A stretch of DNA of 58,792 nt from an uncultured Clostridia bacterium (GTDB lineage: Bacteria > Bacillota > Clostridia > Christensenellales > Borkfalkiaceae): contig CAYXXB010000001.1 of assembly GCA_964468955.1 (NCBI GenBank), positions 1 to 58,792 on the forward strand, given 5' to 3'. Below, in pieces: positions 2,126-33,900 of the stretch (its first letter is position 1; each line of letters opens with the position of its first letter). Under the pieces are notes generated by a model. That model ran no database searches and was not told the DNA's origin. It saw only the letters and a list, made by a program, of their open reading frames with translations. Position numbers and translations under genes: made by a program.

Positions 2126-2129
2126 CCCA

Positions 2130-3219: not shown

Positions 3220-3220
3220 T

Positions 3221-4888
3221 TTACTCACCCAAAAGCGCTTCGACTTTTTTTCTGTCCGCACCGAAGAAGGACAGCATATTTTCGTCCGTCAAGCCACTTT
3301 CTTTTATGTCTGAATATTTTATTATAGCCGCCGCAAGAGCGGGTACGCTTCTCACTTCCTCTAACTTGTCCTCGCGTTCCAGCTTATTGTACAGCTTGGT
3401 TGCCGCCGCGTTTAAAAGATAGCAATAGTCTTCGGCGAGCATTGCAAAGCGGGAATAAGCCATTCCGTAGGCGCGCAGAAACGTCTTGCGCTTGAACTTG
3501 CCCGTATCGAGCGGAAGAAGCGAAAGCCTTCTGTAAAGGTTACAAACGACTATTCCGTATTCGCCTGCGGTGTTGCGTTGAACGAGTTCATTCAGCGTTT
3601 CCATCTTTATTCCGTCGGGGAGAAAAGCATCCAAAAGTATGTCGCGAACGGTGTCGTTGAGTTCGGCTTTTACCGCGCACGTTGCGCCGAGCAGTTTTAG
3701 TTCGTAAGAGTTGTTGCCGTCGCCTTCGTCGAAGCACCAGCGCACACAGCTTTCAATATCAGCGTTTTCGCATAGCTTCTTTGCCGTTTTTTCAGTCAAA
3801 CGGGCAAATGCGGAAAGAAATTCGAGGTTAGTCTGGCTCTCTTCGCGGGGAAGGCGGTAGAAATATTCAAGCTCCTGCCTCTCTTCAGGGGGAAGCTTTG
3901 CGTTTTTTGAAACGATAAACCGCCAATATTCCGCCGTTATAGCGTTTGGATAGACAGTGAAAAGCGTGTCGAATGCCTGTAAGCTTTCGTCGATTTTACC
4001 GCTGTTATATGCGGAAATAGCCCTGAAAAAGAGTATCGAAAAGTCGTAAGCAAGCTCGTTTTCAAGCTTCTTAAACAGTCCGTAAGCTTGGGCGTGCATT
4101 TTGTTTTCGCAACAAACCGTGGCGATTTTGTATATATCGTCGGGCGCTTCAACGTTTAAAGAAAGAAGTCTGTTTGCAAGCTCTTTGGCTTCTTCGCTCT
4201 TTTTCTGCTGTGATTTGACTGCGGCAAGCGTGGTTAGCGCCTGAACGTCGGCGGGGTTGCGGGTTAATATCGCCCTGCACTCCTCCTCCGCCTGTTCGCA
4301 TCTGTCGCTTATAATTTCGCACATTGCGATATAGTTGCGGGCAGCGAGGTATTTTTCGTTGCCCTCGTCCACCTTTGAAAATTCAGCTATCGCGTTGTCG
4401 TATTCGTTGGAGCGCATAAAGTTTATGCCGCTTTCAATCTCTTCGGAATAGTCTGCAAGCTGAGGCGGATATGCAAACTTTAAAGGTTTCTTTTCCGTCT
4501 GCAGAAAGGACGAAAGAATTTCCTGCCTGTTTTCGGGGGTCAGTTCCACGTTCGTTTCCATAAGCAGTTTGTTGTAATAATAGGCGGCAAAGCTTTCCTG
4601 CCCCATATTCATAAAGCTTATGGCAAGCCCTTCGTAAGCTTCCGCAAAGTCGGCTAAGTCAGCCGCATAGTCAATATATTTGAACCAGCCGTTCACGCAC
4701 TTTTCGTACAGCCCCATATCGTCGAACGCTTCGGCGTACAGCATAAACGAGTCCTCGTCGTTGCCGTTAAGGACTGCGTTTTTGTTGAGCATTTTTAGCG
4801 CCGTTATATAGTTGTGACTTTCGATGTTGTCGGCGGCGATGTTTATAAGCCTGTCCGCACCGAAATCTATTTTGCTGGTTTTGTTCAT
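3221..4888 (-). CDS. tetratricopeptide-repeat (TPR) protein
   Basis: 555 aa with repeated A/Y/L-rich 34-residue-like helices ('YEKCVNGWFKYIDY', 'AIAEFSKV...YLAARNYIAMC', 'AQAYGLFKKL'). It starts 3 nt after the hslO stop. Confidence 0.65.
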   Translation of the reverse strand: MNKTSKIDFGADRLINIAADNIESHNYITALKMLNKNAVLNGNDEDSFMLYAEAFDDMGLYEKCVNGWFKYIDYAADLADFAEAYEGLAISFMNMGQESFAAYYYNKLLMETNVELTPENRQEILSSFLQTEKKPLKFAYPPQLADYSEEIESGINFMRSNEYDNAIAEFSKVDEGNEKYLAARNYIAMCEIISDRCEQAEEECRAILTRNPADVQALTTLAAVKSQQKKSEEAKELANRLLSLNVEAPDDIYKIATVCCENKMHAQAYGLFKKLENELAYDFSILFFRAISAYNSGKIDESLQAFDTLFTVYPNAITAEYWRFIVSKNAKLPPEERQELEYFYRLPREESQTNLEFLSAFARLTEKTAKKLCENADIESCVRWCFDEGDGNNSYELKLLGATCAVKAELNDTVRDILLDAFLPDGIKMETLNELVQRNTAGEYGIVVCNLYRRLSLLPLDTGKFKRKTFLRAYGMAYSRFAMLAEDYCYLLNAAATKLYNKLEREDKLEEVRSVPALAAAIIKYSDIKESGLTDENMLSFFGADRKKVEALLGE

Positions 4889-10421: not shown

Positions 10422-11219
10422 TTAGCCGCGTCTCTTGTTTTCTTCAAAACGAACGGATTCTAAATCTTTTGCATCAGCAGGATTATAAAAACCGTCAACG
10501 TCAAATATTCTGCCGTCGTCTTCGTTCAAACCTCTTGCACCGATATGTATAGGCTTAGGTGCAGGCGCGGGAGCGGGCTGCTGTGCAACGGGCTTAGGTG
10601 CGGGAGCAGGTGCAGGCGCGGGAGCGGGTTGCTGTGCAACGGGCTTAGGTGCGGGAGCAGGTGCAGGCGCGGGAGCGGGTTGCTGTGCAACAGGCTGCTG
10701 TACGGGCTGCTGATTATTAGGCATCATAACAGGCATAATCATGGGCTGAATCATAGGCTGACCCATCATCATGGGCATCTGACCCATCATCATAGGCTGA
10801 ACCATAGGTTGACCCATCATCATGGGCATCTGACCCATCATCATAGGCTGCTGCATAGGCATCGGCATTATGGGCTGAACCATAGGCATCTGCTGAACTA
10901 CGGGCTGTACAACGGGTTGCTGTGCAACAGGCTGTTGTACGGGCTGGGGAGCTACCTTCTGAGGTGCGGGCTGCTGAGCGGGCATCTGAATAATGATAGG
11001 CTGCACGGGAGCCGCCGCGCGCGCGGGTGCTTGTACCGCAGGAGCAGGCTGTTGGATTACAGTCTGATTGGTTTTGTTGTTTTCGTTCTTCTTACTGAAA
11101 CGCACCAACAAAACGCCTATAAAAGCTATGGCAGCAACCGCAGCGATAATACCTAATACTAACAGTATCATCTGCCAAGCTTCAAAGTTTATACTTGATG
11201 ATAACAGTGAAGTAAACAT
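10422..11219 (-). CDS. single-pass membrane protein with a P/Q/M-rich low-complexity tail (locus protein A)
   Basis: RBS agaggt. N-terminal TM helix 'MILLVLGIIAAVAAIAFIGVLLV' is followed by RFSKK (positive-inside). The tail is made of QP/PMMMGQ/APAPAPKP repeats, with a short charged non-repetitive C-terminal end. Confidence 0.75.
   Translation of the reverse strand: MFTSLLSSSINFEAWQMILLVLGIIAAVAAIAFIGVLLVRFSKKNENNKTNQTVIQQPAPAVQAPARAAAPVQPIIIQMPAQQPAPQKVAPQPVQQPVAQQPVVQPVVQQMPMVQPIMPMPMQQPMMMGQMPMMMGQPMVQPMMMGQMPMMMGQPMIQPMIMPVMMPNNQQPVQQPVAQQPAPAPAPAPAPKPVAQQPAPAPAPAPAPKPVAQQPAPAPAPKPIHIGARGLNEDDGRIFDVDGFYNPADAKDLESVRFEENKRRG
10552..10692 (-). repeat. in-frame tandem DNA repeat (39 + 51 + 51 nt) encoding 'KPVAQQPAPAPAPAPAP'
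   Basis: Unit ggcttaggtgcgggagcaggtgcaggcgcgggagcgggttgctgtgcaacg recurs at 10552 (short copy), 10591 and 10642. Confidence 0.85.
10752..10853 (-). repeat. in-frame 2 x 51-nt tandem repeat encoding 'QPMMMGQMPMMMGQPMV'
   Basis: Near-identical units at 10752-10802 and 10803-10853. Confidence 0.85.
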
Positions 11220-11587
11220 AACTTTATACCTCTGCTAACTTACAATAAATCCAAGTGCCGAATTGTTCGATTTGACAATATATTTACCGAATATTACGGC
11301 ACACTACTTTTTGTGTAATATATTATCTCACTATTTTTTCAATTCGTCAATACTTTTTTTAAAAAAATTTTAAAAATTATCCAAAATTAACAAATTTTAA
11401 TGCATTTTCTGCAATATTTTTAAAATCTTAAAAAATTCTATTGTTATTTGTAACTGTTTTTTATGCTGTTCAAGCTTCGGTTACCTGCATACCCGCAATA
11501 AATTTTGTTGCGGGTATGCGGTAATCCGTTAGTTTTTTTGTGTTTCAGTCCGTTTTATTACGGAAGCTGTTCACCCTCTCCCTTTAA

Positions 11588-14500
11588 TCAGTATTGAGGA
11601 TTATTGGGGTCTTGAGGAGTGATATAAACCGTCGTCTGTCCCGGCTGAGGCAACTGTGCCTGCTGAGGAGGCATCTGAACCTGCTGGGGAGGAGGCGCCT
11701 GAATGATTATGGGTTGAATCTGCTGTGCGGGCTGAGGTGAAGGCAAAGCCTGCGGTGCGGGAGGCGCAGTTACAATAATTGCGGGTTCTTCGTGACCGCC
11801 GTTCTTATTCCTGCGTACCAACAGTATTATAATCAATTCAGCAATTACAAGCACAACCAATACTACGAACATTATTATCCAGAACAGGTTGCTTCTTTCA
11901 CGCGTTATGTTAAGGGTAATCGTTCTAACAGGAACAGGTGCTTCATTGACTGCCGCTCTTCCCATTGCACCGGAAATATTATCATAAATTTCGATTACAA
12001 CCTGATTTGCGCCGTAATTCAATTGCTCGGAACCCTTAAACTCATAGCGGTACATAGCTTTATCGATGTCTACAACTAATCCAAGATAGTCTACGTTCGA
12101 TGAAACGTTGTACGAGTAATCGTCCTTTGCAGGGTCGAAATCATCCTTGAGCGTTGCAATACCGCTTGCACTCAAACCTAACAACGAAGCGCGCTCGCGC
12201 GAGAATACGAAGATAACCGTCTTTTTCGAGTAACCGTCGCTTGAATACATCGTGATGTTGAATACGTTTGTACCGTAATCAAGTTTAACATTTGCGGATC
12301 TACCAGAAATTGTTCTAGGTACGATAGTGTTACTGTTCTGACTGTCTACACGCAAGATTTCAAAGTCGCCACCGTAGAAAAGGTCTACAATCATTTCGAC
12401 CCTATCTATTTCATGATTGTAAGTATCAACCACTTTAACGAGAGCTTCTTCGGTATCGATATCAATATCAATATAATCGGGTTCGATATCGTATTTGTTG
12501 CTCCAAGTTATTCTTGCGTCGGGGCCACTTTTTTCACCCTGTTTTTCGCGGGTGATTTCGAATATGAAGCAATCCCTGCCGTCCACGTTAGCTCCGTTTT
12601 CCGCTACCGCATAAACGATAAGCGTTGTGGTGCTGTCTTCAGGCAAATCGAGATAACCGTTAGCGCTGAGTGAAGGATTTGTTACAACCGAACTCTTTAC
12701 GCTTGCCGTGGTAACGACAACCTTTACTCTGTTCTGACTTGCAGGAACAGTAATTTTTACAGGTTCGTTGTTATATTCGGAAGGAACGTCGTCGTAATAA
12801 TCTCTCGTACCGTTGATAACGATTCTTCTGATGTCGTAATTTTCGTCAATCACGACAGGCTTTTGTGAAATAGTTACGTTGTAAGTTCTTGTTGAACCGT
12901 CTTCAGCCGTTACCGTAATGGGATAGTTCATCGTGCTGGTTGAATCGCTTAAATTGAACGTGAACTTACCTATTCCCGCAACAGTTGAAGTGGTTACGTT
13001 GGGTTCCGCCTTAATTTCTACGTTGTACGAAGGGCTTTCGTCAACAAGAATCGTGTAATCAAGACGATCGGGATCGAACGAACCTTCGTTGAACGCTACC
13101 GCTCTGTTGCCAATCATAACTACCAGCGACTTCAATGCTACGTCCGAATTAGCGCTTTCTCTGCTAATGCGGATTTCGTACTCTTCGCTTATTTCGCCCT
13201 TATCGCTCTTAGCATGGAAATAAATGCTGGTTGCGACGCCTTCAGGCAAGTCGATAGTTCTTTCGTGGTTGCGGCCGTTGCCGCCGGGAGCCTTTTCAAA
13301 CTTATTATCCAAATAGTCGAACACTTCGGTATACATACCGTCAGTAGTAACCGTCATCTTGACTGATTTTACGGTATAAGGAACGGTTATATCATAGGAA
13401 GTCTTGCCTGCTTCGAATTTGAATACGTCCTGAGTAAGATTTTTACCGTCCGCCGTAATAACCACGTTTTCTATCGTGTTCTTTTCTTCGAAGAGGTTGA
13501 TAACGAATATGTATTCCTTCTCGCCTTCGCCGCTTGAAGCCTTCAGTTTATACTCGTTTCTGCCGGCAGCCACCGTTGCCGAATAAACATTGGCTATAGA
13601 AGTATCTTTGATATTACCTACAGTAGTTACCTTTGCTCCGCTTGTAGGAATGGCTTTGATACGCACGTTCGTACCAGCAGATACTTCCGAAAGCTTGAGG
13701 TCTACCGTGTAAGTCATTTCAACTTCGTCATACCTTGACGATGAGCGAACGTCCACGTAATTGTTGCCTGTTTCTGCAAATTCAAGCGTTTCGAAATCGC
13801 CGGCAATAACTACTCTCTTAACAGTTACCGTATAGGTACCTTTTGCACCCGATTCAGCTACAACCTCTATCTTATAATCGGTTGAATGGCTGCTATTACC
13901 TACGAATGCAAACGTATTCGTTATAGTGCTTGTTCCCGTCTTGCCTCCGATTTTGGACGTATCCGACGAAGGCGTAGCCGTGAACTCGACTACCGTAGAA
14001 GTTTCGTTTTCGGGCTTCTCGATTTCAACCACGTAATCATTATTTTCAGGGTCGAAATTGATAGGCATCTCTTTGCCGCCGATTTTTACGACAAGTTCCT
14101 TCAATGTCGTAGAAGGATCGGCATTTTCTCTGGTAATGTTGAAGGTATATTCCCTACCTTTTGCAGAACCGTCACTCTTGCCTTTGCCTTCGTTTGCTAC
14201 GCCGTATATTACAACCGTAGTAGTTTCGCCGCCCTTCAAAGTTACTTTAACTTCGTAAGCGTCGCCTTTCTTGCTGGTAAGGCGAGTGCCGTCCCTGTAA
14301 ACGTAGGTGTACTTGCCTTCTGGCGTTATATCGAAAGTTACACTGCTTACAGCATTGCGTACGCTTATATCATAAGTATCCGTGAACGCGTCGAAATCGT
14401 AATCGGATTTGTCAAGCTCCGCAGTGCCGTTGCTAATAGTTACATTGCTTAAATCATCGATATCTTCGGTAAGCTTTATGTTGAAATTATATTCGGTTTT

Positions 14501-17500
14501 GCTTGTCGCCGAGCTTGATGCCGTAATTTTGAAGTTATTATCGCCGAACTTGGACAGCGTGTATGCGTAAACGTATACGTTGCCTTCGCTGTTATCGAGC
14601 GTTACGCCCGTACCCGGTGTTGCCTTGGAGTCGGCATTCGCGGTAACTCTGACATAAATCTTAGAACCTACCGCCACGTCTTCTACGTTATACGTAAAGG
14701 AATACGTCTTTGCGTTAGTTCCCGAAGCTTCGAAATCAGTCATTACAGACAAGAAAGATGAATTATCTAAAGACGTTTCTACGTCGTCGAAATCACCCTT
14801 TGCCAATTCACGCTTAATGTTGATTGTATAAGTCTGAGCTGCGCCAGCTTCGGGCGTTACCACAATCTTATACGATTCGGTCTTTGCTGTCGTTCCGAAA
14901 GTGAACGTTTTAGTGCTTGTAGCCGTGTTTACAACTTGCGTATCAGAATCAATCTTGATCTTTGCTTTTTCACTATCCGTCGTTGCGGAAATAACTATCG
15001 AAGCGGTTGCGTTACCCGTATTCTTTATCGTGTGGTTATACGTAAACGTATTATTTAAGTCTAACGCTTCGTTAAACGATATAACTTCTCCGTCGATCGT
15101 TACCTCGAGTTCTTTCAGCTTATTGTTGTCGTCGGCTGCTTCTCTGGTAATATTGAAGGTATACAAAGGACCTATCTTGCTGGGGTCCTCTTTCGTGTAC
15201 AGATCGTTATCCGCAACGGAATGAATTATCACCGTTTTGGTTTTACCTGCCTCGAGGGGTATATCAAACGTATGAGTAAAATCAGCGCCAGCAGTGTGCG
15301 TAAACTTTTTGTTCGTACCGTCGAAAACTACCGTGTATTTACCTTCCGTAGTTACGGTCATCTTTACGGTGCCGTATCCAAGATAAGGTACTGTGATATC
15401 ATACGTCGTGTTGACGCTGTTCGAATCAAACGAGAACGGAACTTCCTGCAGTTCTTCCACTGCTGTACCGTTGGGCAACGTTATTTTAACGTCTTCTATT
15501 CCGCGTTTGTCTTCAATCAGATTAACTACTATCTTGTAAACCTTCGTCTTGCTACCCGCCTTAACCGTGAGCGAGTATTCGTTTTTGCCGAATGCAAGGC
15601 TGCCGTTCCAAGGGCCCGTTGTCGTGCTTGTTCCTACAAGACTGGTTCCCTTCTGTACGCTAGCTTCCTTAGATACCGCACCTTTCAAGTAAACGTACGA
15701 ATTAACGGGAACATCGTCAGTCTTCTGCGTTATAGTGTACGTACCCGTGTTTGCATCGTAGTCGGACGAATCAAGTACAGAATAATAATTATTCGTGTCC
15801 TTGAAGGAAATCTGCAAATCCGTAAATACGGGGTCGGGTATAACGTGCTTTACGGTAACAGTGTAGCTATTGCTTGAGCCGTCTTGCGCGGTAACCTTGA
15901 TAGTATACACCGTGGTGTTTTCCGTGCCTGCCGTGAACGTGAACGATTGATTTGAAACACCGTTCGTCATAGCGGTAAAGTTGGAAATACCGCACGTCAA
16001 CGAAGAAGTCGATGCAGTAGCCGTTGCGGTAAATACTAACGCCGCGGAAGTTGCTGTATCGGGCTTTTCCAATGCAACATAATAAGTGAGATTGCCGGAG
16101 GTGAAGTTAACGTCGTTATCGTAAGCGCTATCCAAGAAGCCTACGGGAGTTCCGTCAACCGTTAACGACAAAGAACTTAACGTTGCGTTACTGTTGGCTA
16201 CTTCCCTTTGAATATTGAACGTATAGGGCGAGCCGACGTCACCCGAAGTGCCGTCCGCCTGTGCATGAATAACAACTGTCGTTGTCGAACCTGCCGTAAG
16301 CGCCACGTTTGTGAGCGTATGCGTCGTTGTGCCTGCCGTATGCGCGAACGTCGTGCTGGGTTCACGCACAACTGACGTGTAGGTACCGTCTGTCGTTACG
16401 GTGAACGTGACGTTATCGTAACCCTGATAAGGAACGGTTATATTGTAAACATACTGTCCTGGGCTGAACGTAAAGCCGCCGACGTTATCCGAACCCTTGG
16501 CTATGGTAACGTTCGTGATCGTATTCTTACCTTCGGCAAGCGTAACGACAAACTTATAAGTGGTCGAGCCTACGCCCGGAGTGTTTGCCGTAAGGCTGAA
16601 TTCATTCTTACCCTGACTTATCGCCTTTGACCAACCTCCAGTTATAGTTGTCAAACCGCCCGTAACAGAAATCGTAGCGCCTTCGGAAGCAGTACCTTTA
16701 AGATAGAAAGTGTTTCCTGTTGCACCGTAAATCGAGGGGTCGTACGTAAGATTGTATGTATAGGTGTTGGTGTCCGCATCGTAAGACATATCCGTAATTG
16801 TGGAAACGTCCTGATGATTGGAGTTTGTTTTGAAAGCGTACTTAAGATCTTTGACAGTACCAGCTTGCAAATCTTTTGCAACCACGACACTATATGTCTT
16901 TGTGTTGCCGGCTTGAGCCGTAACTACAAACGTGTAAGTCTTAGCGGAACGCATCGTAGATGCGGAGAAATCCGCTCCGTCAACCTTTGCCGAAGCATTA
17001 GCAGAACCAAGGGTAAGATTGAACGTACCCTGGAAGCCCGAATCTTCACTAAGCAGGAAATAATATCCGCCCGACGGTGCTTTAGTTGAGTCGTTAGTTA
17101 CAGTCTTGTTCGTCGTCTTTTCCGTCATAGTCAATGATGAAATAGACGTATCGGTATCCAAAACGTTGAACGTGATTTTATATTTTTGGGTATTACCGCT
17201 CTTTGCCGTTGCGGTGAATTCAAGCGTCGCATTGTTTGTAATGCTTGAAACGGAAATCGAACCTCCGCTTGTAACTTTATTAGCCGCAGTACAACCGGTA
17301 GCAGCAACGCTTATATCTGTGCCGATACCGTAGTTGTCAGCAACTGCAGCACCTACGTCCACCGAGGTATAATCGCTGGGAACTTTTACGGTATATTCAA
17401 ACGTATTCTGATTGAAGTTTGCCGCCGTCAAGCCCATACCGGTATATGTGGGCGCTGTTGTCACCGTTAACGTTTTTAATCGTGCGTAACCGCTGACAAT

Positions 17501-18526
17501 TTTAAGAGTATAGTTCTGAGTTGCAGCTCCTCCCGCCGCCGTTACAAGGAATTTTACTATCGTTTCGCCGGAAGAATCAAGCGTAGGTATCGAAATAGTA
17601 CCGTTGTTTGCAATATTCGTGGTAGCAGACGACGAAGCGCCTACGCCGTATTTTATTGTAGAAGTTGCATCAGATACGGTAGGTATGACCTTGAAGTTTG
17701 TTCTATTATCGTTACCTGTGCCGTCGTCATTGTATACCATCTCGATATTGGTGCCTGCGGTGGAAGGGATTGTCACCGCAGTAGAAGCCGTAACGTGACC
17801 TACTTTGATATTCGATAAAGATGCGTTGGCAGCACCGACCATAATGCTTGCCAAGTTTATAGTCATACAGTCGCCTACGCCGGATTGCTTCTTATTATTG
17901 ACTCTGGTTTCTTGGTTAGCCGTATGCTTTGTGCTGGTAGAACCGTCCACAATAGTAACATAATTACCAACTATAGGAGCTATACCGAACTTTAAGTTGC
18001 CTAATTTTTCAGGCGCATCGCTTTTATACTTTATTTTTAATTTAAAAGTAAAATTTGTGCTTGTAGAAACAAGTGTTGCGCCTAACTGAGGACCGAAACC
18101 TATATACGCCGCACCGGCTGATTGAGAAAAGTCGTCTCTGACTATAAAACTATAACTATCTTCGGTAAAATCGGAGCCGAACTCATAGTCATATGTCCAT
18201 TCATCAGCCATACAGAATTCAAAGTACTGATTAACAGCGGCGTCACCCGTCAGTTTTTCACCGCTTTCCGACAAAGGCGCAATATTAAAACCAAACGCAG
18301 ACCAAGTACCCGAAAGAGTAGTTGTGACCGTACCGCTAATGGTAATTGTATCACCCGGTTCAATAGAAGTCTTATCCGCAGTTATTGTAACTACTGTCGG
18401 TGTGCTAGCTGCATCTGCCGTTATTGTATTTTTGCCGTTGAGAAAACTATTCCCGAAAACGCATAAAACTATTGCCCCTAAAGCGAGCAATAGTGATAAT
18501 GCAATTTTTTTAATAGATCTTTTCAT
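11588..18526 (-). CDS. 2,312-aa type-I membrane-anchored surface protein (locus protein B)
   Basis: Signal peptide MKRSIKKIALSLLLALGAIVL. The paralogous N-terminal domain is shared with proteins C and D. Repeated 'L(K/S)xLxVxIxG...Y(T/E)FNItRE' units resemble the cadherin-like beta-sandwich family. C-terminal TM 'LFWIIMFVVLVVLVIAELIIILLV' + RRNK is followed by a 75-aa P/Q tail. Confidence 0.8.
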   Translation of the reverse strand: MKRSIKKIALSLLLALGAIVLCVFGNSFLNGKNTITADAASTPTVVTITADKTSIEPGDTITISGTVTTTLSGTWSAFGFNIAPLSESGEKLTGDAAVNQYFEFCMADEWTYDYEFGSDFTEDSYSFIVRDDFSQSAGAAYIGFGPQLGATLVSTSTNFTFKLKIKYKSDAPEKLGNLKFGIAPIVGNYVTIVDGSTSTKHTANQETRVNNKKQSGVGDCMTINLASIMVGAANASLSNIKVGHVTASTAVTIPSTAGTNIEMVYNDDGTGNDNRTNFKVIPTVSDATSTIKYGVGASSSATTNIANNGTISIPTLDSSGETIVKFLVTAAGGAATQNYTLKIVSGYARLKTLTVTTAPTYTGMGLTAANFNQNTFEYTVKVPSDYTSVDVGAAVADNYGIGTDISVAATGCTAANKVTSGGSISVSSITNNATLEFTATAKSGNTQKYKITFNVLDTDTSISSLTMTEKTTNKTVTNDSTKAPSGGYYFLLSEDSGFQGTFNLTLGSANASAKVDGADFSASTMRSAKTYTFVVTAQAGNTKTYSVVVAKDLQAGTVKDLKYAFKTNSNHQDVSTITDMSYDADTNTYTYNLTYDPSIYGATGNTFYLKGTASEGATISVTGGLTTITGGWSKAISQGKNEFSLTANTPGVGSTTYKFVVTLAEGKNTITNVTIAKGSDNVGGFTFSPGQYVYNITVPYQGYDNVTFTVTTDGTYTSVVREPSTTFAHTAGTTTHTLTNVALTAGSTTTVVIHAQADGTSGDVGSPYTFNIQREVANSNATLSSLSLTVDGTPVGFLDSAYDNDVNFTSGNLTYYVALEKPDTATSAALVFTATATASTSSLTCGISNFTAMTNGVSNQSFTFTAGTENTTVYTIKVTAQDGSSNSYTVTVKHVIPDPVFTDLQISFKDTNNYYSVLDSSDYDANTGTYTITQKTDDVPVNSYVYLKGAVSKEASVQKGTSLVGTSTTTGPWNGSLAFGKNEYSLTVKAGSKTKVYKIVVNLIEDKRGIEDVKITLPNGTAVEELQEVPFSFDSNSVNTTYDITVPYLGYGTVKMTVTTEGKYTVVFDGTNKKFTHTAGADFTHTFDIPLEAGKTKTVIIHSVADNDLYTKEDPSKIGPLYTFNITREAADDNNKLKELEVTIDGEVISFNEALDLNNTFTYNHTIKNTGNATASIVISATTDSEKAKIKIDSDTQVVNTATSTKTFTFGTTAKTESYKIVVTPEAGAAQTYTINIKRELAKGDFDDVETSLDNSSFLSVMTDFEASGTNAKTYSFTYNVEDVAVGSKIYVRVTANADSKATPGTGVTLDNSEGNVYVYAYTLSKFGDNNFKITASSSATSKTEYNFNIKLTEDIDDLSNVTISNGTAELDKSDYDFDAFTDTYDISVRNAVSSVTFDITPEGKYTYVYRDGTRLTSKKGDAYEVKVTLKGGETTTVVIYGVANEGKGKSDGSAKGREYTFNITRENADPSTTLKELVVKIGGKEMPINFDPENNDYVVEIEKPENETSTVVEFTATPSSDTSKIGGKTGTSTITNTFAFVGNSSHSTDYKIEVVAESGAKGTYTVTVKRVVIAGDFETLEFAETGNNYVDVRSSSRYDEVEMTYTVDLKLSEVSAGTNVRIKAIPTSGAKVTTVGNIKDTSIANVYSATVAAGRNEYKLKASSGEGEKEYIFVINLFEEKNTIENVVITADGKNLTQDVFKFEAGKTSYDITVPYTVKSVKMTVTTDGMYTEVFDYLDNKFEKAPGGNGRNHERTIDLPEGVATSIYFHAKSDKGEISEEYEIRISRESANSDVALKSLVVMIGNRAVAFNEGSFDPDRLDYTILVDESPSYNVEIKAEPNVTTSTVAGIGKFTFNLSDSTSTMNYPITVTAEDGSTRTYNVTISQKPVVIDENYDIRRIVINGTRDYYDDVPSEYNNEPVKITVPASQNRVKVVVTTASVKSSVVTNPSLSANGYLDLPEDSTTTLIVYAVAENGANVDGRDCFIFEITREKQGEKSGPDARITWSNKYDIEPDYIDIDIDTEEALVKVVDTYNHEIDRVEMIVDLFYGGDFEILRVDSQNSNTIVPRTISGRSANVKLDYGTNVFNITMYSSDGYSKKTVIFVFSRERASLLGLSASGIATLKDDFDPAKDDYSYNVSSNVDYLGLVVDIDKAMYRYEFKGSEQLNYGANQVVIEIYDNISGAMGRAAVNEAPVPVRTITLNITRERSNLFWIIMFVVLVVLVIAELIIILLVRRNKNGGHEEPAIIVTAPPAPQALPSPQPAQQIQPIIIQAPPPQQVQMPPQQAQLPQPGQTTVYITPQDPNNPQY
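11895..16860 (-). repeat. array of about 330-aa three-domain supermodules (4 full copies plus a divergent C-terminal part) in protein B
   Basis: Recurring order: an 'F.DL...YD..T.TYT..' domain, then a 'T(I/L)xNV...YDITVPY...V.MTVTT.G.YT.V' domain, then a 'YTFNITRE..A....LK.L.V.I.G' domain. Copies are diverged at the DNA level. Confidence 0.7.
17822..18409 (-). other. cohesin-like N-terminal domain of protein B (approximate bounds)
   Basis: 'VVTITADKTSIEPGDTITISG...WSAFGF...NYFEF...FTFKLKIKYKSDAPEKLGNLKFGIAPI...VNNKKQSGVGDCMTIN' aligns by eye with the equivalent regions of proteins C and D. Confidence 0.45.
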
Positions 18527-18579: not shown

Positions 18580-19362
18580 TTAATTAGCTTTGGCTGTAAT
18601 GCTCAATGCTATTTTATTTATAGTAAAGCAAAATCCTGCTTCGCTATCTTCTTTATTATTCACGACCGTTGTATTATCAGCCCTGTGAATAACCGTAGTG
18701 CGTTCAGCCACATTGTAATATCTTAAGAAGAACGCCTTAATAGGAGCAACGCCGAAATTGAAAGACTGCATTGAAGGAGCGTCTTCCTTAACCTTGAGAG
18801 TAAATTCAAAGGTTATTTTATTCGTAGCCGCCGTATTACTATTTCTAACATTTCTATTACTTAAGCTTACGAGCATACCGTTGCCGATAACGGGATTCCA
18901 AGTACTCGTATCCATAAAATACTCAGTATCAACGGAGTGCGAAACGTATTCAAAATAATTTGTAACCGTAGTATCGATAATATTATCGCCGTCTAATGCG
19001 GTAAAAAGTAAAGATACAGAGTGCCAATTGTAATCGGTTAAATTAGACGATATTTCAAGGGTAACGGTAAAAGTATCACCTGCGGTAAGATCGTTCTTGT
19101 CCACCGACACTTTTACGCCCGAAGGGGTTGAAAAAGGATACTCTTCTTTATCGCCGGTGTTGTCCTTGTCTCCGGTATTGTCTTTATCACCGGTATTGTC
19201 TTTATCGCCGGTGTTACCACTATTGTCGGTTATACCGCTATCAGGGGTATTATCTGCAGGCTTCTTATTACAAGCAGGGAAAATAAATGCTATACTTAAT
19301 GCTATTACGCAAACTAAAACAAAGTGTAAAAATAAAGAAGTTAAATGTTTTGCCTTTTTCAT
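18580..19362 (-). CDS. 260-aa putative lipoprotein carrying one cohesin-like domain (locus protein C)
   Basis: Signal peptide with the lipobox-like 'IFPAC', a (GDKDNT)x4 linker, then a domain paralogous to the N-termini of B and D. It ends 53 nt upstream of gene B. Confidence 0.7.
   Translation of the reverse strand: MKKAKHLTSLFLHFVLVCVIALSIAFIFPACNKKPADNTPDSGITDNSGNTGDKDNTGDKDNTGDKDNTGDKEEYPFSTPSGVKVSVDKNDLTAGDTFTVTLEISSNLTDYNWHSVSLLFTALDGDNIIDTTVTNYFEYVSHSVDTEYFMDTSTWNPVIGNGMLVSLSNRNVRNSNTAATNKITFEFTLKVKEDAPSMQSFNFGVAPIKAFFLRYYNVAERTTVIHRADNTTVVNNKEDSEAGFCFTINKIALSITAKAN
18583..19128 (-). other. cohesin-like domain of protein C (approximate bounds)
   Basis: 'VKVSVDKNDLTAGDTFTVTLE...WHSVSLLF...NYFEY...ITFEFTLKVKEDAPSMQSFNFGVAPI...VNNKEDSEAGFCFTIN'. 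Confidence 0.45.
19150..19221 (-). repeat. 4 x 18-nt in-frame tandem repeat encoding GDKDNT
   Basis: Units atcgccggtgttgtcctt / gtctccggtattgtcttt / atcaccggtattgtcttt / atcgccggtgttaccact. Confidence 0.85.
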
Positions 19363-19515: not shown

Positions 19516-21768
19516 TTAGAACGTACCGTAATAATCGTCGTGAATATTCTTTAAGCGGTTTGCATGTTCAGCAACTTCGGTGATGTCCGCCGCACTGACG
19601 TAGCCTGCGTTGGATATCAATGCCGCCAAGAAGAATTCTTCATCATCTAACATAGTGGTATTAGTTGCGCCTACGTGAGCAACGATTATGTTAATATCGT
19701 CGCCGTCGATATAACCGTCGCCGGTAACGTCGCCGAGCATAGAAACATAAATTACGTCTTCAACGTTTCCGCTCACCATAAGCTCTACTCTCCAACCCGT
19801 AGTAACATAGGTTTCGTAGTCGGGCTCGCTTAACATATCTTCGTCAAAGTCTGCGCCGGGATTACCGCAATCATAAACCAATTCGTCATCGTAGTTGTAT
19901 ATACGAAGCCTTGAACGCTGAGCGCTATCAAAGTTGGCAAGGAAATCGTTAACTACAGTTTGTTCTGAAACTTTGCCTATTACAACTTTAGCAAAATTAA
20001 CGTCGTCAATACCGTGAGTCAAGCTGTTCATCTTGTAAGATGCTATACGCTGGTATGTGAAGTTTGCGGTTACTTCTTCAGATCTATATACAAAATCTGC
20101 AGTTGCGTCGGAAGCTAATTTAATTACTTCCTGATTCTTTAAAATCATTGTATACGTTTCGGAATTGCCCGCTTCTGCTAAAACGGTAATTGTATAAGCA
20201 GGGTTGGAAGTCGTATTTGCATTAAGAGCCTTTGAAACGGTCTTCTTATTGGTTGTACCCGTAAGGCTTATGGTTGCTTCCGCAGAAGTAGCAGTAACAG
20301 TTACGTTAGCGGGAGTTGTCTGACCAACTATCATATAGTAGTAATCAACGCTGTTTTCCGTAGCTCTTAACTCACTGTTAGTGAAAGTATTGTTAGTACC
20401 TGCAACGGTTACAGTGTCGAGCGAAGTATCAACGTCCACTACGTCGAACGTAAGCGTGTAAGTCTTTGTTACGTAGCCGTCTACGTCTTTACACTTAATC
20501 TGAAGCGTATCGTTATCTGCAATCGCGTCCTTAATGTCCGTCAAAGAGAACATCGTGCCGCTGGTCGCAGACGTAGCCGACGTAAATGAACCGGACTTTA
20601 CAAGATCTACCTGAGAATCGCCGCCTTTGCTGTAATTAACCGTAGGGGTTATATCAATCTGAGTGCTGTCGTTGGGAACGTAAACGGTATACGCCTCTAT
20701 TGCGGGGTCAAATACACCGCTTGTAGCCGTCAAGTCCAAGTTGTTCTTGGTTAAGCCCGTCTTTGCCGTATTATTTGCAACAACAAGATTGCTAAGAGCC
20801 GCACCTTTGACAGTAATAGTTAATTCATAAGTTTTCTTATCGCCGTTTTCCGCAGTAACTTCGATTGTTACCTTGCCGTTGGCGGGAATATCTACTTTGC
20901 CGATTTCGCCGCTCTTAACGTCAACGTCACCGGGAAGAAGCTTAACGGTTGCGCCCGCGTCGTGTGTTATAGGCAAAACGCTTAAAGGCAAGCTGGGGTC
21001 TGTTACCGTAATAGCAGGCATACCTGTTTCGGTAATAGTCGTGATTGTTTGAAGCTTGGAAGCGTCGTCGCCCTGACCCACCTTTAAAGGCGTATCAAGA
21101 TTATTGTCATTGCTTGCATTTTTTACAAGAATGTCAACGTCCTGAACCGTTACCTTAGCAGAGTTGTCAAACTTGTAGCTATTTGATGTTGAATCAATAT
21201 TTACATAGTTAGCCGCCATTAACTGCGCGCCAAATTTGTACGAAGTATCTATAGGCGTATTTGCATCAACGGTTACGTCCAAACTCATTTCGAGAGCGTT
21301 TGCAGCTAAAGGTCTATATTGGTTACCGCTACGCTTACTCAATGAATACTTATACATACCCTTCTGACCTAGTTCGGAAGGAATAGCGCCTGCAGGACCC
21401 GAAGTATCTTGCATTGTATACGTATTTCCGACATTCGCCGATGTAGGTGCGTTTGTCGTATAGTTACTGAACGTAAACAAAGATTGATTTGCCGAATCGA
21501 AAGTTGTTTCATTTGAGAGCAAGCCTAAGAAGATTGAAACCGAGTGATAAACACCGGTTTCGCCGGTAACTTCTATTTTCATAGTGAGCTTAAACGTACC
21601 GCCGGGGTATACCGAAGCCTTATCCGTTGTAAAAGTTACGGTCATCGGTGTTGCAGCAGCGTCCGCAACATCGTTGTGTTTGACGAATAATAACCCGCTG
21701 AACAGTGCAAGCACCATTGAAAGAGCGAGTATTACCGCCATAACTGTCTTGTTTATTATCCTTTTCAT
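19516..21768 (-). CDS. 750-aa secreted protein with a cohesin-like N-terminal domain, beta-sandwich repeats and a dockerin-like C-terminus (locus protein D)
   Basis: Strong RBS gaggaggt and signal peptide 'AVILALSMVLALFSGLLF'. The N-terminal domain is paralogous to B and C. The C-terminal segment of about 157 aa is clearly homologous to the C-terminus of the 7,517-aa protein. Confidence 0.75.
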   Translation of the reverse strand: MKRIINKTVMAVILALSMVLALFSGLLFVKHNDVADAAATPMTVTFTTDKASVYPGGTFKLTMKIEVTGETGVYHSVSIFLGLLSNETTFDSANQSLFTFSNYTTNAPTSANVGNTYTMQDTSGPAGAIPSELGQKGMYKYSLSKRSGNQYRPLAANALEMSLDVTVDANTPIDTSYKFGAQLMAANYVNIDSTSNSYKFDNSAKVTVQDVDILVKNASNDNNLDTPLKVGQGDDASKLQTITTITETGMPAITVTDPSLPLSVLPITHDAGATVKLLPGDVDVKSGEIGKVDIPANGKVTIEVTAENGDKKTYELTITVKGAALSNLVVANNTAKTGLTKNNLDLTATSGVFDPAIEAYTVYVPNDSTQIDITPTVNYSKGGDSQVDLVKSGSFTSATSATSGTMFSLTDIKDAIADNDTLQIKCKDVDGYVTKTYTLTFDVVDVDTSLDTVTVAGTNNTFTNSELRATENSVDYYYMIVGQTTPANVTVTATSAEATISLTGTTNKKTVSKALNANTTSNPAYTITVLAEAGNSETYTMILKNQEVIKLASDATADFVYRSEEVTANFTYQRIASYKMNSLTHGIDDVNFAKVVIGKVSEQTVVNDFLANFDSAQRSRLRIYNYDDELVYDCGNPGADFDEDMLSEPDYETYVTTGWRVELMVSGNVEDVIYVSMLGDVTGDGYIDGDDINIIVAHVGATNTTMLDDEEFFLAALISNAGYVSAADITEVAEHANRLKNIHDDYYGTF
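19519..19737 (-). other. dockerin-like C-terminal segment of protein D
   Basis: 'GDVTGDGYIDGDDINII' fits the dockerin Ca-binding loop pattern D-x-(N/T)-x-D-G-x-(I/V)-x-x-x-D. The second half, 'ISNAGYVSAADITEV', is degenerate. Confidence 0.5.
21124..21657 (-). other. cohesin-like N-terminal domain of protein D (approximate bounds)
   Basis: 'MTVTFTTDKASVYPGGTFKLTMKIE...YHSVSIFLG...LFTFSNY...YKFGAQLMAANYV'. Confidence 0.4.
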
Positions 21769-21935
21769 AAGTACCTCCTCAAAAGAACTTATTTATTTGA
21801 TATTAATTTGGTTTTTTCGACGAAGCTTGTCGAATTTTCGCACATATTATACACCTGACATTGCATCTTGTCAAGAATAATTCAGACAAGAATGCAATGC
21901 TTCGGGTGTATTTTGTTTGTTTTAACTACTTCTGT

Positions 21936-24900
21936 TTAAACTAAGAAGTCTTCAACGTTTGAATATCCGTTACCGATTGAGCCAACTTCGCTTAAATCGG
22001 ACGCAGAAACGTAACCGGAGTTGGTAATCAATGCCGCCAACAGGAATTCCAAATCTTCCAAAGAGGAAGTATTTGAAGCAGCTACGTAGTTGGTAATTAC
22101 ACTCATATCGTCGCCGTCACAATAACCTTCACCTGTAACGTCCCCGAGAACTGAGAGATATACAACGTCTGCAGCCGATTCGTCCTTGCCGTACGTTACT
22201 TTCCAGCCTGTGCCGATCAAATAACTCTCATCGCTGCGCAGGTCTGAATCGTCAATTCCTATGTCCTTACCGCAATCGTATACCAATTCGCCGTCGTAAT
22301 TGTAAAGACGAATACTATCCAACTGAGCGGGATTAATGTTGTCAAGGAATTCACCGGCAAATGTTCCGGGCAAGATGTTGCCGAGAACTACTCTTTCAAA
22401 ATCAGTGTCGTCCTTGCCGTGTACCCAACCCTTTTCGTCATACGAAACACGATACATAAACATGAAACCGTACATTTCATTCGTATCAAGATGTAAGAAC
22501 TTAAAGGTTGAATCTTCAGTAAGCTGAAGTGCGGCATCGCCTGAGATTGTAAGCGTTGCGTTTGCCTCGGTATTAAGCTTGAATTCAGCTTCGTAGTTGG
22601 GGTTACCGCTAAGCTTACCCGTTACGTTGGTCAAATCAGCGGATAAACCATAAGTGCCGCGTGCGCCTACCGAGCTGACGGTGCTGCCGTCGCTAAGCTT
22701 GAACAGAGGATTAATCTTCAAGTTGTTGCTTGTGAAGATATCTTCCAAGCTGCTGCCTATATCGTCGCCGATCAAGCCGGATACGATAGAAAGCGTGTAC
22801 CAATCGGTAAGCTTAACCGCTTCGCCAGTATATTCCGCCGTCTGATTCATCGGGGTAACTAATACTTGGACCTTTTTAGGCGTAATCTTGAACTTGAACG
22901 ACTGCATATCGTCTGCAGACAGCTTATAGTCGGAGCTTGCCGAACCGCCAAGGCTGATGTACGTATCGTACTCGTCTACATTTACAGGAGTCACACCGCC
23001 GTCGAATATGTACGATATAGACAAGTTGCCAGTGTCGCTAGCGAAGACGTCGGGAATAAACGAAGGCTCTTGCGCTTCACCGTTGTATTCTACACTCGTC
23101 ACCTTACTGCTGAACGTCAACTCTTTCTTATCGATGTAGTAATCGGTAATAAGAGGTTCAGGCGTGCTGACATCCATTTTTCTTATCGAATTTCTTGTCG
23201 TAACCACAGAACCTGCGGTGTTCAACGTGTAGTTCGTATTACCGCTTATGCCTGTAGCCTGTGCCTGATAAGGTTTGTTGCTTGCATGAACGCAGCTGCC
23301 CGTATCCTCGCCGACGCCTTCAACCGTTACGTTAACAACTTCGCCTTTGAGTCCGACCGCCGTTGCCGTAGGTACGTTTACAGTGCCGGTGTACGTCAAG
23401 TGCAGGTCACCCCAATGGATGTTGACTGCGTAAGGCTTGATTTCGAACGTCGTTGTGATGTTCGTGCCTCCGTCAACCGTATAGTTGGAGTTGCTTACCG
23501 CTACTGCTTCCGCCGTAAGGTTCTCGCCTGCGTCAATCTGACCGTCTACGGTTACGTGTACAACGTCATTCTTAACCCTGTTAGTAACCGTTGCTTCGGG
23601 AGCCTGTTTTTCACCGTTGTAGATCAATTCACCGATCGTCCAACTGAGAATGACTTTACGGGGATTGATTACAAACGTCGTAGTCGCTGTGGTCGAACCT
23701 TCTAACGTGTAGTTCTCATTATTGAGAGCGGTTATAGTCGCCGTAGCTTCTTCGCTTGCGTATATCGAGCCCTCGTACTCCAAAGTGATATCGCCGTCGT
23801 TTATGTCGGGGTCAAATACCAGATTTGTAAACCCAACGACATCAGGATGCTGCTCTTCGCCGTTGTATTCGAACTCCGTATCGGTATCCCATACAAAGCC
23901 AAGTACGCGAGGCACTATCGTTATAGGAATACTCTTATCCGTTTCTCTGAAATCGTCGGTAGCATCAACGTGTAAATTGACGTAAACTATGCCGACCTTC
24001 ATTGCTTTGAATGCTGCGAGGCCGCTAACCAGCGCTTCACCCGTATTCTTTGCAACCTTATTAAGATCAAGCTCAACAAAATAGTCGAAATCGCCAAGAG
24101 CGTAACTATTATCGGTTACTATCGGGTTGAGGGATACTTCATCACCGAAGGTTACCGTCGTAACCTGAAGTTCGATAGGAGCTTCGGGCTTATCGACAAG
24201 AATATCACATTCAGCCTGACCGCCTTCGTAGTTATCGGTGGGCATTACGGTTACGGAAACGTGTACGTAACCGAGCTGCGTACCGGTAATCATACCTGTC
24301 ATTACGTCGTCGAAAGCAGCTACGCCAAGGTTATCCAACAATGCCGTATCTGTAACTTCGCCCATTGCAAACAACGTCTGACCGAATTCCATATTGCCGG
24401 CAATTTCCAGCTTGGTTGAAACGCCTATCGTGATTACCTTAGTTACGAAGGAAAGTGAAAGCTTAGCTCTGTTAATTACGAACTGAGGAGCTTTGATTAC
24501 CTTTCCGCCAAGCGAGTAGTTCTTGTTGGAAAGACATTCGTCATCGGCATAAGCCGTACCTTCTTTGTAAGTTCCGACGTTGAGCTGAGCGCCCTTTACG
24601 TTTATGGTACATTCGTCCGTTACGCCTTCGCTGTTCGTAACCAAACCGGTTCTTACGGTTGCCGTAGGCGCAAACATGTTTTTACCGTCATACGTGAACT
24701 CGAAGTTATGCCATACCAAATCTACTACTATAGGAGTTATGGTAACTTCAAATTCTGCTACCGTCTTCGCGTAATTTTCCGTTTCCATTATGGTCGCAGT
24801 AATAATTACCTTACCTGCTCCGTCGGGCATCAGCACGGTGTTGTCACTGATAAGGTGACACGAACCGTCCATATCGGTCTTATCGAAGTATACTTTTTGG

Positions 24901-30900: not shown

Positions 30901-33900
30901 GTAGCTTTTGCGGTATGCCCATCAGGTCCGCTTGCGTCCTTCGTCGCGCCGCTAATTGCAACGGTGCATTCGTCAAGCTTTCCGGTGATAGCGTTCGTTA
31001 CAAGATAGCCGGCAGCCACTTCGACGAAAGGTTTATGCTCTGTTGTACCGTCGTAAACGCATATGGGGTCGATACCCAAATCGTCAAGGACAGGGTTACC
31101 GTCTACGTAGTGAGTTTCTTTCGACCACTTAAGCGCAACCGTCTTAGGCGTAACGGTCGTGTAAATTACCTTTACGTCGGTCGTGCCGTCTTTCCAGCAA
31201 TACGTGTCTTTAAGAGTGAACGCAACGTGGTATGTACCTGCGTTGACAGCTTCGATTTTGACAAGTCCGTCACTGCCGACGCTTTCTCTCATAACTGTTG
31301 TGTCATATTCGCCTATCGTCATCATGGACAAATCGATATTTTCTATAATCGACTGCCAGTTGCCGTTATAGGTTCTGGGAGTTTCCAAAGCGTTAGGCTC
31401 GGGATCAACGGGCGTACCGATAGAAGCTTCGATGTTTGTTACGTCGTCGCTTGCAGTCTTGGAAATCGCGAAAATGCTTCTATTTGATACGAACACCGTA
31501 TTGGGATGAACGTCGTTATACATACCGAAGCCGCTGGTGAATATGCCTGCGTTGAGACGGTAGATACCGATTTTCGCTTCTTCAGTGAATTCGGATACAA
31601 CGTTGAGCTTTTTCGTAGCTAAGTTGAAGAAGATATCACAGTAATCGTTAGGTTCTACTTCCCTATCTCCGCCAACGTTTGTTTTATCCATAGCGATATT
31701 GTTATAAATACGCGCGCTGCCGCCGACAGACATAGTACCTGCACCGTAAACGCGGATACCGTTTTCACCGGTGTTTGCGGTAATTTCGCCGCCCGTGACG
31801 GTTACATTGCCCGTACTTGTGACGTAAATTGCACCGCCACCGTCGTTTTCAGACGTACCGGTTGCTGTGTTGCCCGTAATCGTACCGCCGAGGATATCGG
31901 TCTTGCCCGCAGAATAAATACCGCCGGCGCCGATAGCTTTGTTGTTGGAAATAGTACCGCCGTTCATCGTAAAGTAGGTACCTGAACCGCTGTTTACGAA
32001 TACTGCGCCCGCGCTCGAACCGGTGTTAGCCGTGATAAGAGCGTCTCCGTCCATAGTGAACTTACCGTTGCTCGCCACGTAAACGCCGCCGATTACCGCG
32101 TAGTTTTTGGTTATAGTACCGCCAGTGAAGTTGACCGTACCGGTTGTGTAAACCGCACCGCCGCCCGATTCAGCCGTGTTGCTTTCAATCGTGCCGCCCG
32201 TCATAACGAACATTCCGCTGCCGGCAACATAAACCGCGCCGGAGTACTTTGCAGTGTTGGAAGAAATCGTGCCGCCGTTCATAAAGAACTTGCCTGCCGA
32301 GTAAACTGCGCCCGCACTTGCGGATTGCGATTCGCCCTTATTGTTGCTGATCTTGCCGTCGGTCAAGGTTACACTGCCCGTAGCGCCTATGTGCAGCGCG
32401 CCGCCGGAAGAACCGGTAAGGTTAGCACCGCCCGTGATGACGCCTTCAGATCTGTCGCAACAGGTAGGAGGAATAAGTCCCGCGGGATTATCCACCTTGT
32501 TATTTACAATTTCAAGTTCGCCGTCGGCATAGATAACCATACCGTTCTGAACGGAAGTCTTCAAATTCCTGTTAATCTTATGACCGTTGAGGTTAAGTGT
32601 TACCTTAGCACCTTCTGGAACATACAGAGCGCCGTTGCGGAATGCGGTGCCTGAACCGAACGAAGTCGTAAGCTCTTCGTCGGCAGCCGCCGTCCAGCAA
32701 CCGTAGAGCGTGAATTCCTGAGCTTCGCCCGTAGCCAAGCTCTTATCAACCGTGAACTGCCAATTTACCGCGTTGTCAAAGCTGGAAACTGACAATTCGG
32801 TATATCCGTCGAATACTTCCGTCTTGCGGTTGTAAATTGCAGGTTCTTCGGATACGAAGATGCTTGCGTAAGGATCTGCATCGTTGCCGTTTTTAGCGCC
32901 CCAGCCCTTAGTGAGCTGACCTACGCTCTGGCGCGAGAAGCCTATCTTCGCATCATTCGTCAATTTTGAAGCGACGTTGATAATGCCAAGAGGATTTTCA
33001 AGCCTTAAGCCTGTGCCTGCAGTTCTGTTTTCAGTATAGATGTAAGCGTTGTCGCCTACGCTTACGGAAGCAGCCGTGTTCTTGCTTACGAATACGTCCG
33101 CATTGGTGTTGCCTGTAATCTTACCGCCGGTCACGGTGAGCGAACCTGCATTTACGTTAATACCGTAAATCGAGTTGCTCGTAATTGTGCCTGCGCCGTA
33201 AGTACCGTAGAGGTTGGCTTCGTCGCCGTTCAATACTAAACCATCGGGCTTGATAAGTCCGCCGACCGTCAGGGAAGCCGTATCCTTATTGACGTAAACG
33301 CCGTAGCTGCCGCCCTTGATAACGCCCGTCTGCATTATCGAGGAGTCGACAATCTGCAACGTGCCTTCTACGATAATTACCACGTTTATCGCAGGATACT
33401 TGATATCGTTAGCCAAACCGTGGTTACGGTCGAGAACGTTACCGTTGAGGTCGAGAACTATGTTCGCGCCCGCAGGTACAAGCAATGCGCCGCTGCGATA
33501 TGCCGTCGAGTTAGTGCCGAACCTTGTAGTGTACGAACCGCCGCTGTAATTTGCCGCCGTCCAATTATCTACCAATGAGAAGTACTGAGGTTCTTTGTTA
33601 GACAAACTTGCCGTAACTGCGAATACCCAGTTATCGTTATTGTTGTTGGAAAGCATTACGGCTTCGCGCTGTGCGCCCGTACCCGTTGAAGCTACTCTGT
33701 AAGTGTTGACAGCCGCTTTGAAGCGCGTTTCGGGCTTGCTTGTAGGATTGTATTTACCCCAATCCTTCGTGAATTCGCCGATTATGTTTCTCTTTACGAA
33801 GATATCGTTCTTGGTTACGTCCTCACCTGTAACAAACGCCGATGCAATTTCGATTAACGGCGACGTGTTGCTCCAGAAAGTGATATCTTCTCTGCGTCCG

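Follow-up and report, generated by a model that had tools for sequence, protein, structure and literature searches.

In the 58,792-nucleotide stretch of contig CAYXXB010000001.1 that was analyzed here (hereafter the window), from an uncultured Clostridia bacterium (assembly GCA_964468955.1), four consecutive minus-strand genes, designated E, D, C, and B, encode a giant secreted protein of 7,517 amino acids (E; 21936-44489), an adaptor-like protein of 750 amino acids (D; 19516-21768), a lipoprotein-like protein of 260 amino acids (C; 18580-19362), and a protein of 2,312 amino acids (B; 11588-18526), with intergenic gaps of 167 nt (E-D), 153 nt (D-C), and 53 nt (C-B). E and D share a C-terminal module that appears to belong to the X-module–dockerin (XDoc) type. 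The locus probably specifies a non-cellulosomal cohesin-dockerin scaffold, in which E and D would be exported and their XDocs would bind the co-encoded cohesins of B, C, and D, holding the giant proteins on the cell.

The first-pass annotation of this DNA had proposed, from quoted peptide strings, that D and E share a C-terminal module of about 150 amino acids, and the strings were located on the minus strand where it had placed them. A BLASTP comparison of the two C-termini indicated 37% identity across 255 amino acids (E=1e-55), which is far beyond chance. The sharing was thus confirmed, whereas the module proved to be longer than proposed, because family conservation and the AlphaFold domain both indicated about 200 amino acids; the copies placed at 19519-19989 and 21939-22394 are too short, and the modules span 19519-20121 in D and 21939-22535 in E. 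On the minus strand, the module of E is composed of an X part at 22152-22535 (residues 7319-7446) and a dockerin part at 21969-22151 (residues 7447-7507), and that of D is composed of an X part at 19741-20121 (residues 550-676), a dockerin part at 19558-19740 (residues 677-737), and an extra C-terminal helix after the dockerin at 19519-19557 (model helix 193-200). Across the module family, a hydrophobic-x-D-Y-F/Y tail is conserved C-terminal to the dockerin.

An exhaustive profile search covering 1.84 billion representative proteins identified relatives of the module in 199 representative clusters at E≤1e-3, including 143 at E≤1e-10, and nearly all of them carried the module at the extreme C-terminus. 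Nine proteins of 6,969-7,994 amino acids were present among the best 150 listed of the 199 relatives, many other relatives were of about 730-830 amino acids, similar in size to D, and some had two tandem copies of the module. A word-index homolog search returned 0 proteins for the D module and one protein for a profile of 42 module relatives (alignment A3, used as the family profile below), indicating that the index misses the module family. When one genome per species was scanned for the module, 78 loci were found, all in metagenome-assembled genomes (MAGs) of gut or uncultured Clostridia labeled Christensenella, Christensenellaceae, Candidatus Coproplasma, Bacillota, and similar, and several genomes contained at least 10 copies.

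The identification of the terminal segment of about 60 amino acids as a dockerin was borne out at the family level, both by the sequence profile and by the predicted fold. The best match of the D/E module among sequences of the Protein Data Bank (PDB) was a dockerin, with an E-value of 0.058, and when the 42-sequence profile was compared with the PDB sequences, every match at E≤0.001 was a dockerin-bearing chain (8x39 at 4.7e-8, 4uyp_B at 1e-6, and 2ccl_B at 2.9e-6, and also 1ohz_B), with the matches spanning both repeats at profile positions 130-187. In the Pfam search, the alignment of D and E to Dockerin_1 (PF00404) covered profile positions 1-52 of 57, 25 of the 42 family members matched this model at E≤0.01, and the relatives P0054 and P0055 exceeded its gathering score with 33.6 and 28.6 bits, respectively. 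The AlphaFold model of the 201-residue D module had a predicted local distance difference test score (pLDDT) of 96 and a predicted template modeling score (pTM) of 0.91, with dockerin helices at residues 140-150, 161-167, and 177-187, and it showed the dockerin fold of loop-helix, linker helix, and loop-helix in about 60-70 amino acids. The top 10 matches of this model in a Foldseek search against the PDB were all dockerins, and 2ccl_B and 4fl4 were superposed over 63-64 residues with a target-normalized TM-score of 0.83-0.87 and a root-mean-square deviation (rmsd) of 1.3-1.7 Å, the best type I dockerin superposition being that of 2ccl_B (0.87, 1.3 Å, 63 columns). None of the outcomes that had been named beforehand as counting against a dockerin, namely no match to a dockerin hidden Markov model (HMM), no EF-hand-like fold, or another known anchor, arose. 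These profile and model comparisons support the assignment of the C-terminal part of D and E as a divergent dockerin.

The first of the two calcium loops was expected to fit the dockerin pattern, and it was found to do so in both proteins, with acidic residues at positions 1, 5, 9, and 12. Loop 1 of E (DVTGEGYCDGDD; 22107-22142, minus strand) reads D-V-T-G-E-G-Y-C-D-G-D-D and that of D (DVTGDGYIDGDD; 19696-19731, minus strand) reads D-V-T-G-D-G-Y-I-D-G-D-D, both of which are canonical. Loop 2 is degenerate, reading L-I-T-N-S-G-Y-V-S-A-S-D in E (LITNSGYVSASD; 21996-22031, minus strand) and L-I-S-N-A-G-Y-V-S-A-A-D in D (LISNAGYVSAAD; 19585-19620, minus strand). The proposal that the second loop has lost its first acidic ligand was correct as far as it went, but the loss is larger, extending to position 5 and leaving Ser or Thr at position 3, and only G6, a hydrophobic position 8, and D12 are retained. 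A regular-expression search for calcium loops over the six frames of the window gave no sites beyond the two in D and E. Across 137 modules, repeat 1 showed D1 in 99%, N, T, or D at position 3, D5 in 89%, and both G6 and D12 in 100%, whereas in repeat 2 position 1 was L, Y, or M, position 3 varied, and position 5 was K, S, or N, with N4 (97%), G6 (91%), and D12 (96%) retained. Dockerin ligands at positions 1, 3, 5, 9, and 12 are therefore not present in both repeats, repeat 2 conserving D12 alone of the set, and the aligned sequences indicate that the second calcium site is lost family-wide with the loop-helix being kept. As in type II and type III XDocs, a single binding mode is a reasonable inference, one orientation being expected from the asymmetry of the two dockerin repeats together with the packing of the X domain against the dockerin in the model.

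The X part occupies residues 1-127 of the D module model (about 127 amino acids) and is β-rich, and its last β-strand (model residues 119-126) leads directly into the dockerin, so that the X part and the dockerin are predicted to form one rigid unit; the approximately 200 amino acids of the two parts are conserved as a single unit across the family. As in an XDoc, the X part is located directly N-terminal to the dockerin and is packed on it in the AlphaFold prediction. Y29, H36, and G37 of the X part are invariant, and D39 and D40 (≥90%), T108, G109, and W110 are nearly so. The HGxDD motif formed by the invariant H-G and the nearly invariant D-D was observed inside a long predicted loop, and it may pack on the calcium-less loop 2 with its 97% conserved Asn. 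A comparison of profile positions 1-128, corresponding to the X part, with the PDB gave no match, and in the Foldseek search of the whole 201-residue module the XDoc entries 4wkz, 4iu2, and 4iu3 were matched weakly (probability of 0.23-0.54, rmsd of 6-19 Å). Homology of the X part to the known Ig-like X-modules of CipA, CipB, and CttA was found neither by the profile nor by whole-module Foldseek. The β-rich segment, which had been suggested to resemble an X-module, may thus be regarded as one by its position and predicted packing, and not by homology to known X-modules. Taken together, the sequence and model data suggest that the shared C-terminus is an XDoc-type module in which a new β-rich domain of about 127 amino acids is joined without a linker to a divergent dockerin of about 60 amino acids and a short extra helix.

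The candidate partners of these modules are the N-terminal domains of D (21124-21657, residues 38-215), C (18586-19134, residues ~77-259), and B (17795-18412, residues ~39-244), all on the minus strand. The three domains are mutually homologous, with 28-30% identity in their alignments, and are all matched by a single HMM at 1e-42 to 1e-59. The AlphaFold model of the D domain (pLDDT of 81, pTM of 0.79) showed the nine-stranded β jelly-roll of the cohesin fold, to which the domains of B and C were assigned through their homology to D. In the Foldseek search of this model against the PDB, ranks 1-32 were all cohesins, ahead of generic β-sandwiches, with 5lxv_A as the best match (E=1.5e-7), 4uyq_A at a target-normalized TM-score of 0.77, and ScaE (2zf9) and CohG (4n2o) being included. 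Their mutual homology, the predicted fold, and the synteny of the gene cluster in 13 other loci indirectly support these three domains as the partners of the XDocs. Each cohesin-bearing protein has one cohesin, unlike multi-cohesin cellulosomal scaffoldins. A cellulosome was considered and rejected, as B, C, D, E, and nine other module-bearing proteins yielded no domain of a carbohydrate-active enzyme (CAZyme) or carbohydrate-binding module (CBM).

In E, an N-terminal hydrophobic segment precedes a unit of 250-430 amino acids that is repeated at least 13 times, and Ig-like repeats with a YNGxxQxP motif and the C-terminal XDoc follow, whereas D consists of a signal peptide, the cohesin-fold domain, cadherin-like domains (PF12733), and the C-terminal XDoc. 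No transmembrane segment besides the N-terminal hydrophobic one and no C-terminal sorting signal were found in D and E, and the sole LPXTG-like string in E, LPYTG at residue 5519, is internal rather than C-terminal. A cell-wall-binding (CWB) or other known anchor as the identity of the module was rejected, since neither an anchor family, S-layer homology (SLH) and CWB included, nor an LPXTG signal at the C-terminus was found. B has a signal peptide, its N-terminal cohesin-like domain, a cadherin-like domain matched in nine stretches, and a C-terminal transmembrane helix (~11819-11887, minus strand) followed by a Pro/Gln-rich tail. C has a signal peptide that ends in FPAC, which is lipoprotein-like, and a GDKDNT repeat linker followed by the cohesin-like domain. 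The linker between the signal and the domain is encoded by an 18-nt tandem repeat (3.8 copies; 19145-19212) and is possibly a length-variable spacer. NCBIfam searches of D, C, the C-terminus of E, and the N-terminus of B gave nothing.

As for the cargo, the repeat unit of E carries an LDLNGHTIDR-like motif in each of the at least 13 copies in the region at 31300-44200 of the window (residues ~100-4300), a region for which no Pfam match was obtained; the Pfam search of both halves of E likewise returned no family at all. Sequences similar to the N-terminal half of E were also present in open reading frames (ORFs) of 52 related loci, including XDoc proteins of 966-1,006 amino acids, and because of this recurrence the E-type repeat unit may be what the XDoc module usually carries as cargo.

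The association between the two domain types is conserved beyond the window. Thirteen loci (L001-L006, L008, L009, L012-L015, and others), all from gut Clostridia MAGs labeled Christensenella, Christensenellaceae, Candidatus Coproplasma, or uncultured, share the order of a giant XDoc protein, an adaptor with cohesin and XDoc, an optional small cohesin protein, and a long cohesin protein, and orthologs of B were found in 12 loci. The cohesin-like domain was also present in 35 of the XDoc proteins among the best 150 listed of the 199 representatives. In some other MAGs (for example, the CANSGN, CAJTYW, CAJTZR, CAJUOU, and CAJTNA assemblies; loci L016-L078), 10-15 or more XDoc genes were observed, many of which have two tandem modules about 165 amino acids apart.

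The two parts of the module differ in how they diverge between D and E. Within the window, D and E share 33% identity in their X parts and 61% in their dockerin parts. The X parts are closest to their own orthologs (63% for D to P0002 and 57% for E to P0003), and the dockerin of E is 61% identical to that of D vs 43-47% to those of other giants. Over the 13 loci, the dockerins of giant and adaptor had a mean identity of 52% within a genome compared with 39-41% between genomes, and the corresponding values for the X parts were 40% and 36-38%; the partner of the same genome ranked first in 7 of the 13 loci when dockerins were compared and in 3 when X parts were. The repeat 1 columns with the largest within-genome agreement were loop position 10 and helix positions 13, 14, 17, and 18, and positions 14, 15, and 21 of repeat 2 also contributed. 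These columns presumably lie, in both repeats, on the helix faces by which canonical dockerins contact cohesins. The within-genome matching of the dockerins fits a situation in which they track shared cohesins, and gene conversion could also contribute to it.

From these results, the following arrangement is proposed. E, an adhesin-like giant, and D would be exported without a wall or membrane anchor of their own, and their XDocs would attach noncovalently to B, C, and D through the cohesin-fold domain that each of these carries at its N-terminal tip. B, a single-pass membrane protein whose cadherin-like domains form a long stalk, would act as the membrane anchor, and C, being lipoprotein-like, would provide a membrane-proximal cohesin site. 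D could bridge as an adaptor because it carries both a cohesin and an XDoc. The three co-encoded cohesin-fold domains probably hold D and E on the cell, and the pairing would be expected to depend on calcium.

Several observations weigh against this proposal. D and E scored singly only 13.6-17.2 bits against Dockerin_1, below its gathering score of 22.9. The cohesin call was made on fold because the sequence methods gave nothing convincing: a profile of 22 N-terminal domains matched no cohesin among the PDB sequences and gave only a chance-level match to YfhM, a Pfam search of each member of the domain set gave nothing convincing, and the only match to Pfam Cohesin (PF00963) was a partial one of 24 residues in C (E=0.029). 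This assignment thus depends on one AlphaFold model, that of the D domain, and on Foldseek. In addition, no cohesin-like domain was found within the 10-kb flanks in the genomes with at least 10 XDoc genes, only one of the five putative helix-1 contact positions is the same in D and E, which leaves a shared specificity tentative, and the N-terminal hydrophobic segment of E might be an uncleaved anchor, which would alter the topology.

Some of these points would be expected if the module had a dockerin fold and no cohesin-binding function, acting instead as a calcium-stabilized C-terminal domain that takes another ligand, for example a polymer of the cell wall, a glycan of the host, or a factor in secretion or sorting, with the co-encoded β-sandwiches being unrelated Ig-like or adhesin domains. 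The reliance of the cohesin assignment on structure prediction, the many XDoc genes of multi-copy genomes that have no cohesin-like neighbor, and the nearly constant position of the module at the extreme C-terminus, as in a sorting tag, are in line with this explanation, which we nevertheless consider unlikely: the top 32 fold matches of the N-terminal domain were specifically cohesins, the synteny of the module with that domain is strict in the 13 loci and both domains occur together in the 35 of the best 150 listed proteins, the helix-1 faces of the dockerins match within genomes, as would suit a protein partner in common, and no known wall-binding family was matched. Much less credible, to the point of being very improbable, is that the similarity of D and E is a mere functionless remnant of a local duplication or gene conversion. 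Gene conversion could yield dockerins that are closer to each other in D and E than to their orthologs, but the X parts of the two proteins follow orthology and not paralogy, the module, which has invariant residues and a fold predicted with very high confidence, is kept as a unit in the 199 representative clusters, and purifying selection across the family is evident from the conservation.

A further question concerns the use of D within the cohesin-dockerin scaffold. Rather than serving as a one-step adaptor, D may mainly bind D head to tail, forming a noncovalent filament that would start from B or C and have E as its cap, and the conservation of D-like proteins with a cohesin and an XDoc in these 35 representatives is compatible with this, as is the 61% identity of the D and E dockerins, which might compete for the same cohesins, including that of D. 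The data do not separate self-binding from hetero-binding, however, and with the three cohesins being only 20-30% identical, distinct specificities are equally possible; we judge such a filament to be improbable, slightly more so than a dockerin fold without cohesin binding. Returning to the cohesin-dockerin scaffold as proposed, a broader version, in which a lineage-wide non-cellulosomal cohesin-XDoc system with a new X domain and an obligately single-calcium dockerin tethers adhesins of 7,000-8,000 amino acids and many smaller β-helix proteins to a membrane-anchored stalk, is put forward more tentatively, with somewhat less than even confidence. A single-orientation XDoc anchor of this kind may be mechanically strong, and D-type adaptors with a cohesin and an XDoc may polymerize.

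The genes flanking the E-D-C-B cluster are housekeeping genes (asd, dapA, dapB, and Hsp33, with rho-, obg-, and nadD-like genes by inspection), and the cluster therefore resides on a bacterial chromosome. In the E-D gap upstream of D, a pattern search found a perfect 12/12 match to the sigma-70 consensus (TTGACA-17 nt-TATAAT; 21846-21874, minus strand), by which D and the later genes may be transcribed apart from the giant gene E. Upstream of E, a protein of 1,366 amino acids is encoded on the minus strand (45144-49244); besides a signal peptide, it has a transmembrane helix near residue 1012 and an acidic Pro-rich repeat tail of about 340 amino acids. Because its homolog in the related locus L011 (28% identity; 10795-14985) is found immediately downstream of the giant gene, this protein may be part of the cohesin-XDoc system. 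Downstream of B, an ORF of 265 amino acids (10422-11219, minus strand) gave a weak match to the membrane-protein model TIGR04561, and a homolog with 41% identity follows the B ortholog in L001 (19009-19683; Candidatus Coproplasma sp.).

Among the known systems, the type II XDocs of Clostridium thermocellum ScaA (CipA) and CipB (PDB 2b59 and 5k39; PMC5141474) are similar in that a β-rich module is fused to and packed on a C-terminal dockerin, that they serve surface attachment rather than enzyme loading with a single mode expected, and that one partner is a cohesin-bearing anchoring protein. The type II X-module is a 98-residue Ig-like domain that stabilizes the dockerin and accompanies a single binding mode (PMC5141474), whereas the X part described here has about 127 amino acids, and neither its sequence nor its fold matched a known X-module. 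Furthermore, type II dockerins have calcium in both loops, whereas the ligands at positions 1, 3, and 5 are missing from loop 2 here, and type II anchoring by SLH repeats is replaced by a transmembrane helix or a lipobox-like signal outside any CAZyme or cellulosome context. The type III XDocs of Ruminococcus flavefaciens, CttA and the ScaH XDoc-CohG complex (PDB 4iu2, 4iu3, and 4wkz), also tether adhesin-type cargo by an XDoc-cohesin pair, but structural similarity outside the dockerin core is low, and ScaE is sortase-anchored in that system, in contrast to the present one with its 7,517-residue cargo and an adaptor with one cohesin and one XDoc. The group-2 dockerins of R. flavefaciens, which are truncated and functional with one of the two calcium loops (PDB 9gvb; PMC12270676), provide a precedent for a cohesin-binding single-calcium dockerin; they have no second repeat, whereas the full second loop-helix is kept here with its ligands lost and Asn at position 4 (97%).

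As is proposed for D, Acetivibrio cellulolyticus ScaB, whose dockerin chains 4uyp_B and 4uyq_B were among the best sequence and fold matches, uses cohesin and dockerin to link a cargo with an anchoring scaffoldin. ScaB is a multi-cohesin cellulosomal protein, whereas D combines a single cohesin with cadherin-like spacers and an XDoc. Non-cellulosomal cohesin-dockerin pairs are known to join enzymes or toxins. The cohesins of Clostridium perfringens (2vo8) and Archaeoglobus (2xdh), both fold matches of the D domain, are examples of use outside cellulose degradation, and the present system differs from these in having a giant fibrillar protein as cargo and an operon conserved among MAGs of gut Clostridia. 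In Christensenellales single-cell genomes, Pfam dockerins and one cohesin have been noted (PMC10266427), and our literature search found, apart from this occurrence note, no description of the cohesin-XDoc operon. The system would work in the manner of type II and type III XDoc anchoring with a ScaB-like adaptor, from which five features set it apart, namely the new X domain, the single calcium site in a full-length dockerin, the transmembrane and lipoprotein-like anchors, the single-cohesin proteins, and the nonenzymatic giant cargo.

If the proposed scaffold is correct, it would show how poorly known and mostly uncultured gut Clostridia retain surface proteins of 7,000-8,000 residues without sortase or SLH anchors. 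It would also add a subtype of dockerin whose second calcium site has been replaced throughout the family, with retention of the loop-helix and fusion to an X domain that matched no known fold, providing a natural test case for the contributions of calcium and the X-module to dockerin stability, binding orientation, and mechanical strength, and possibly a new orthogonal pair for protein-assembly engineering. In this lineage both partners escape the Pfam thresholds, and gut genomes therefore probably contain more cohesin-dockerin systems than have been counted.

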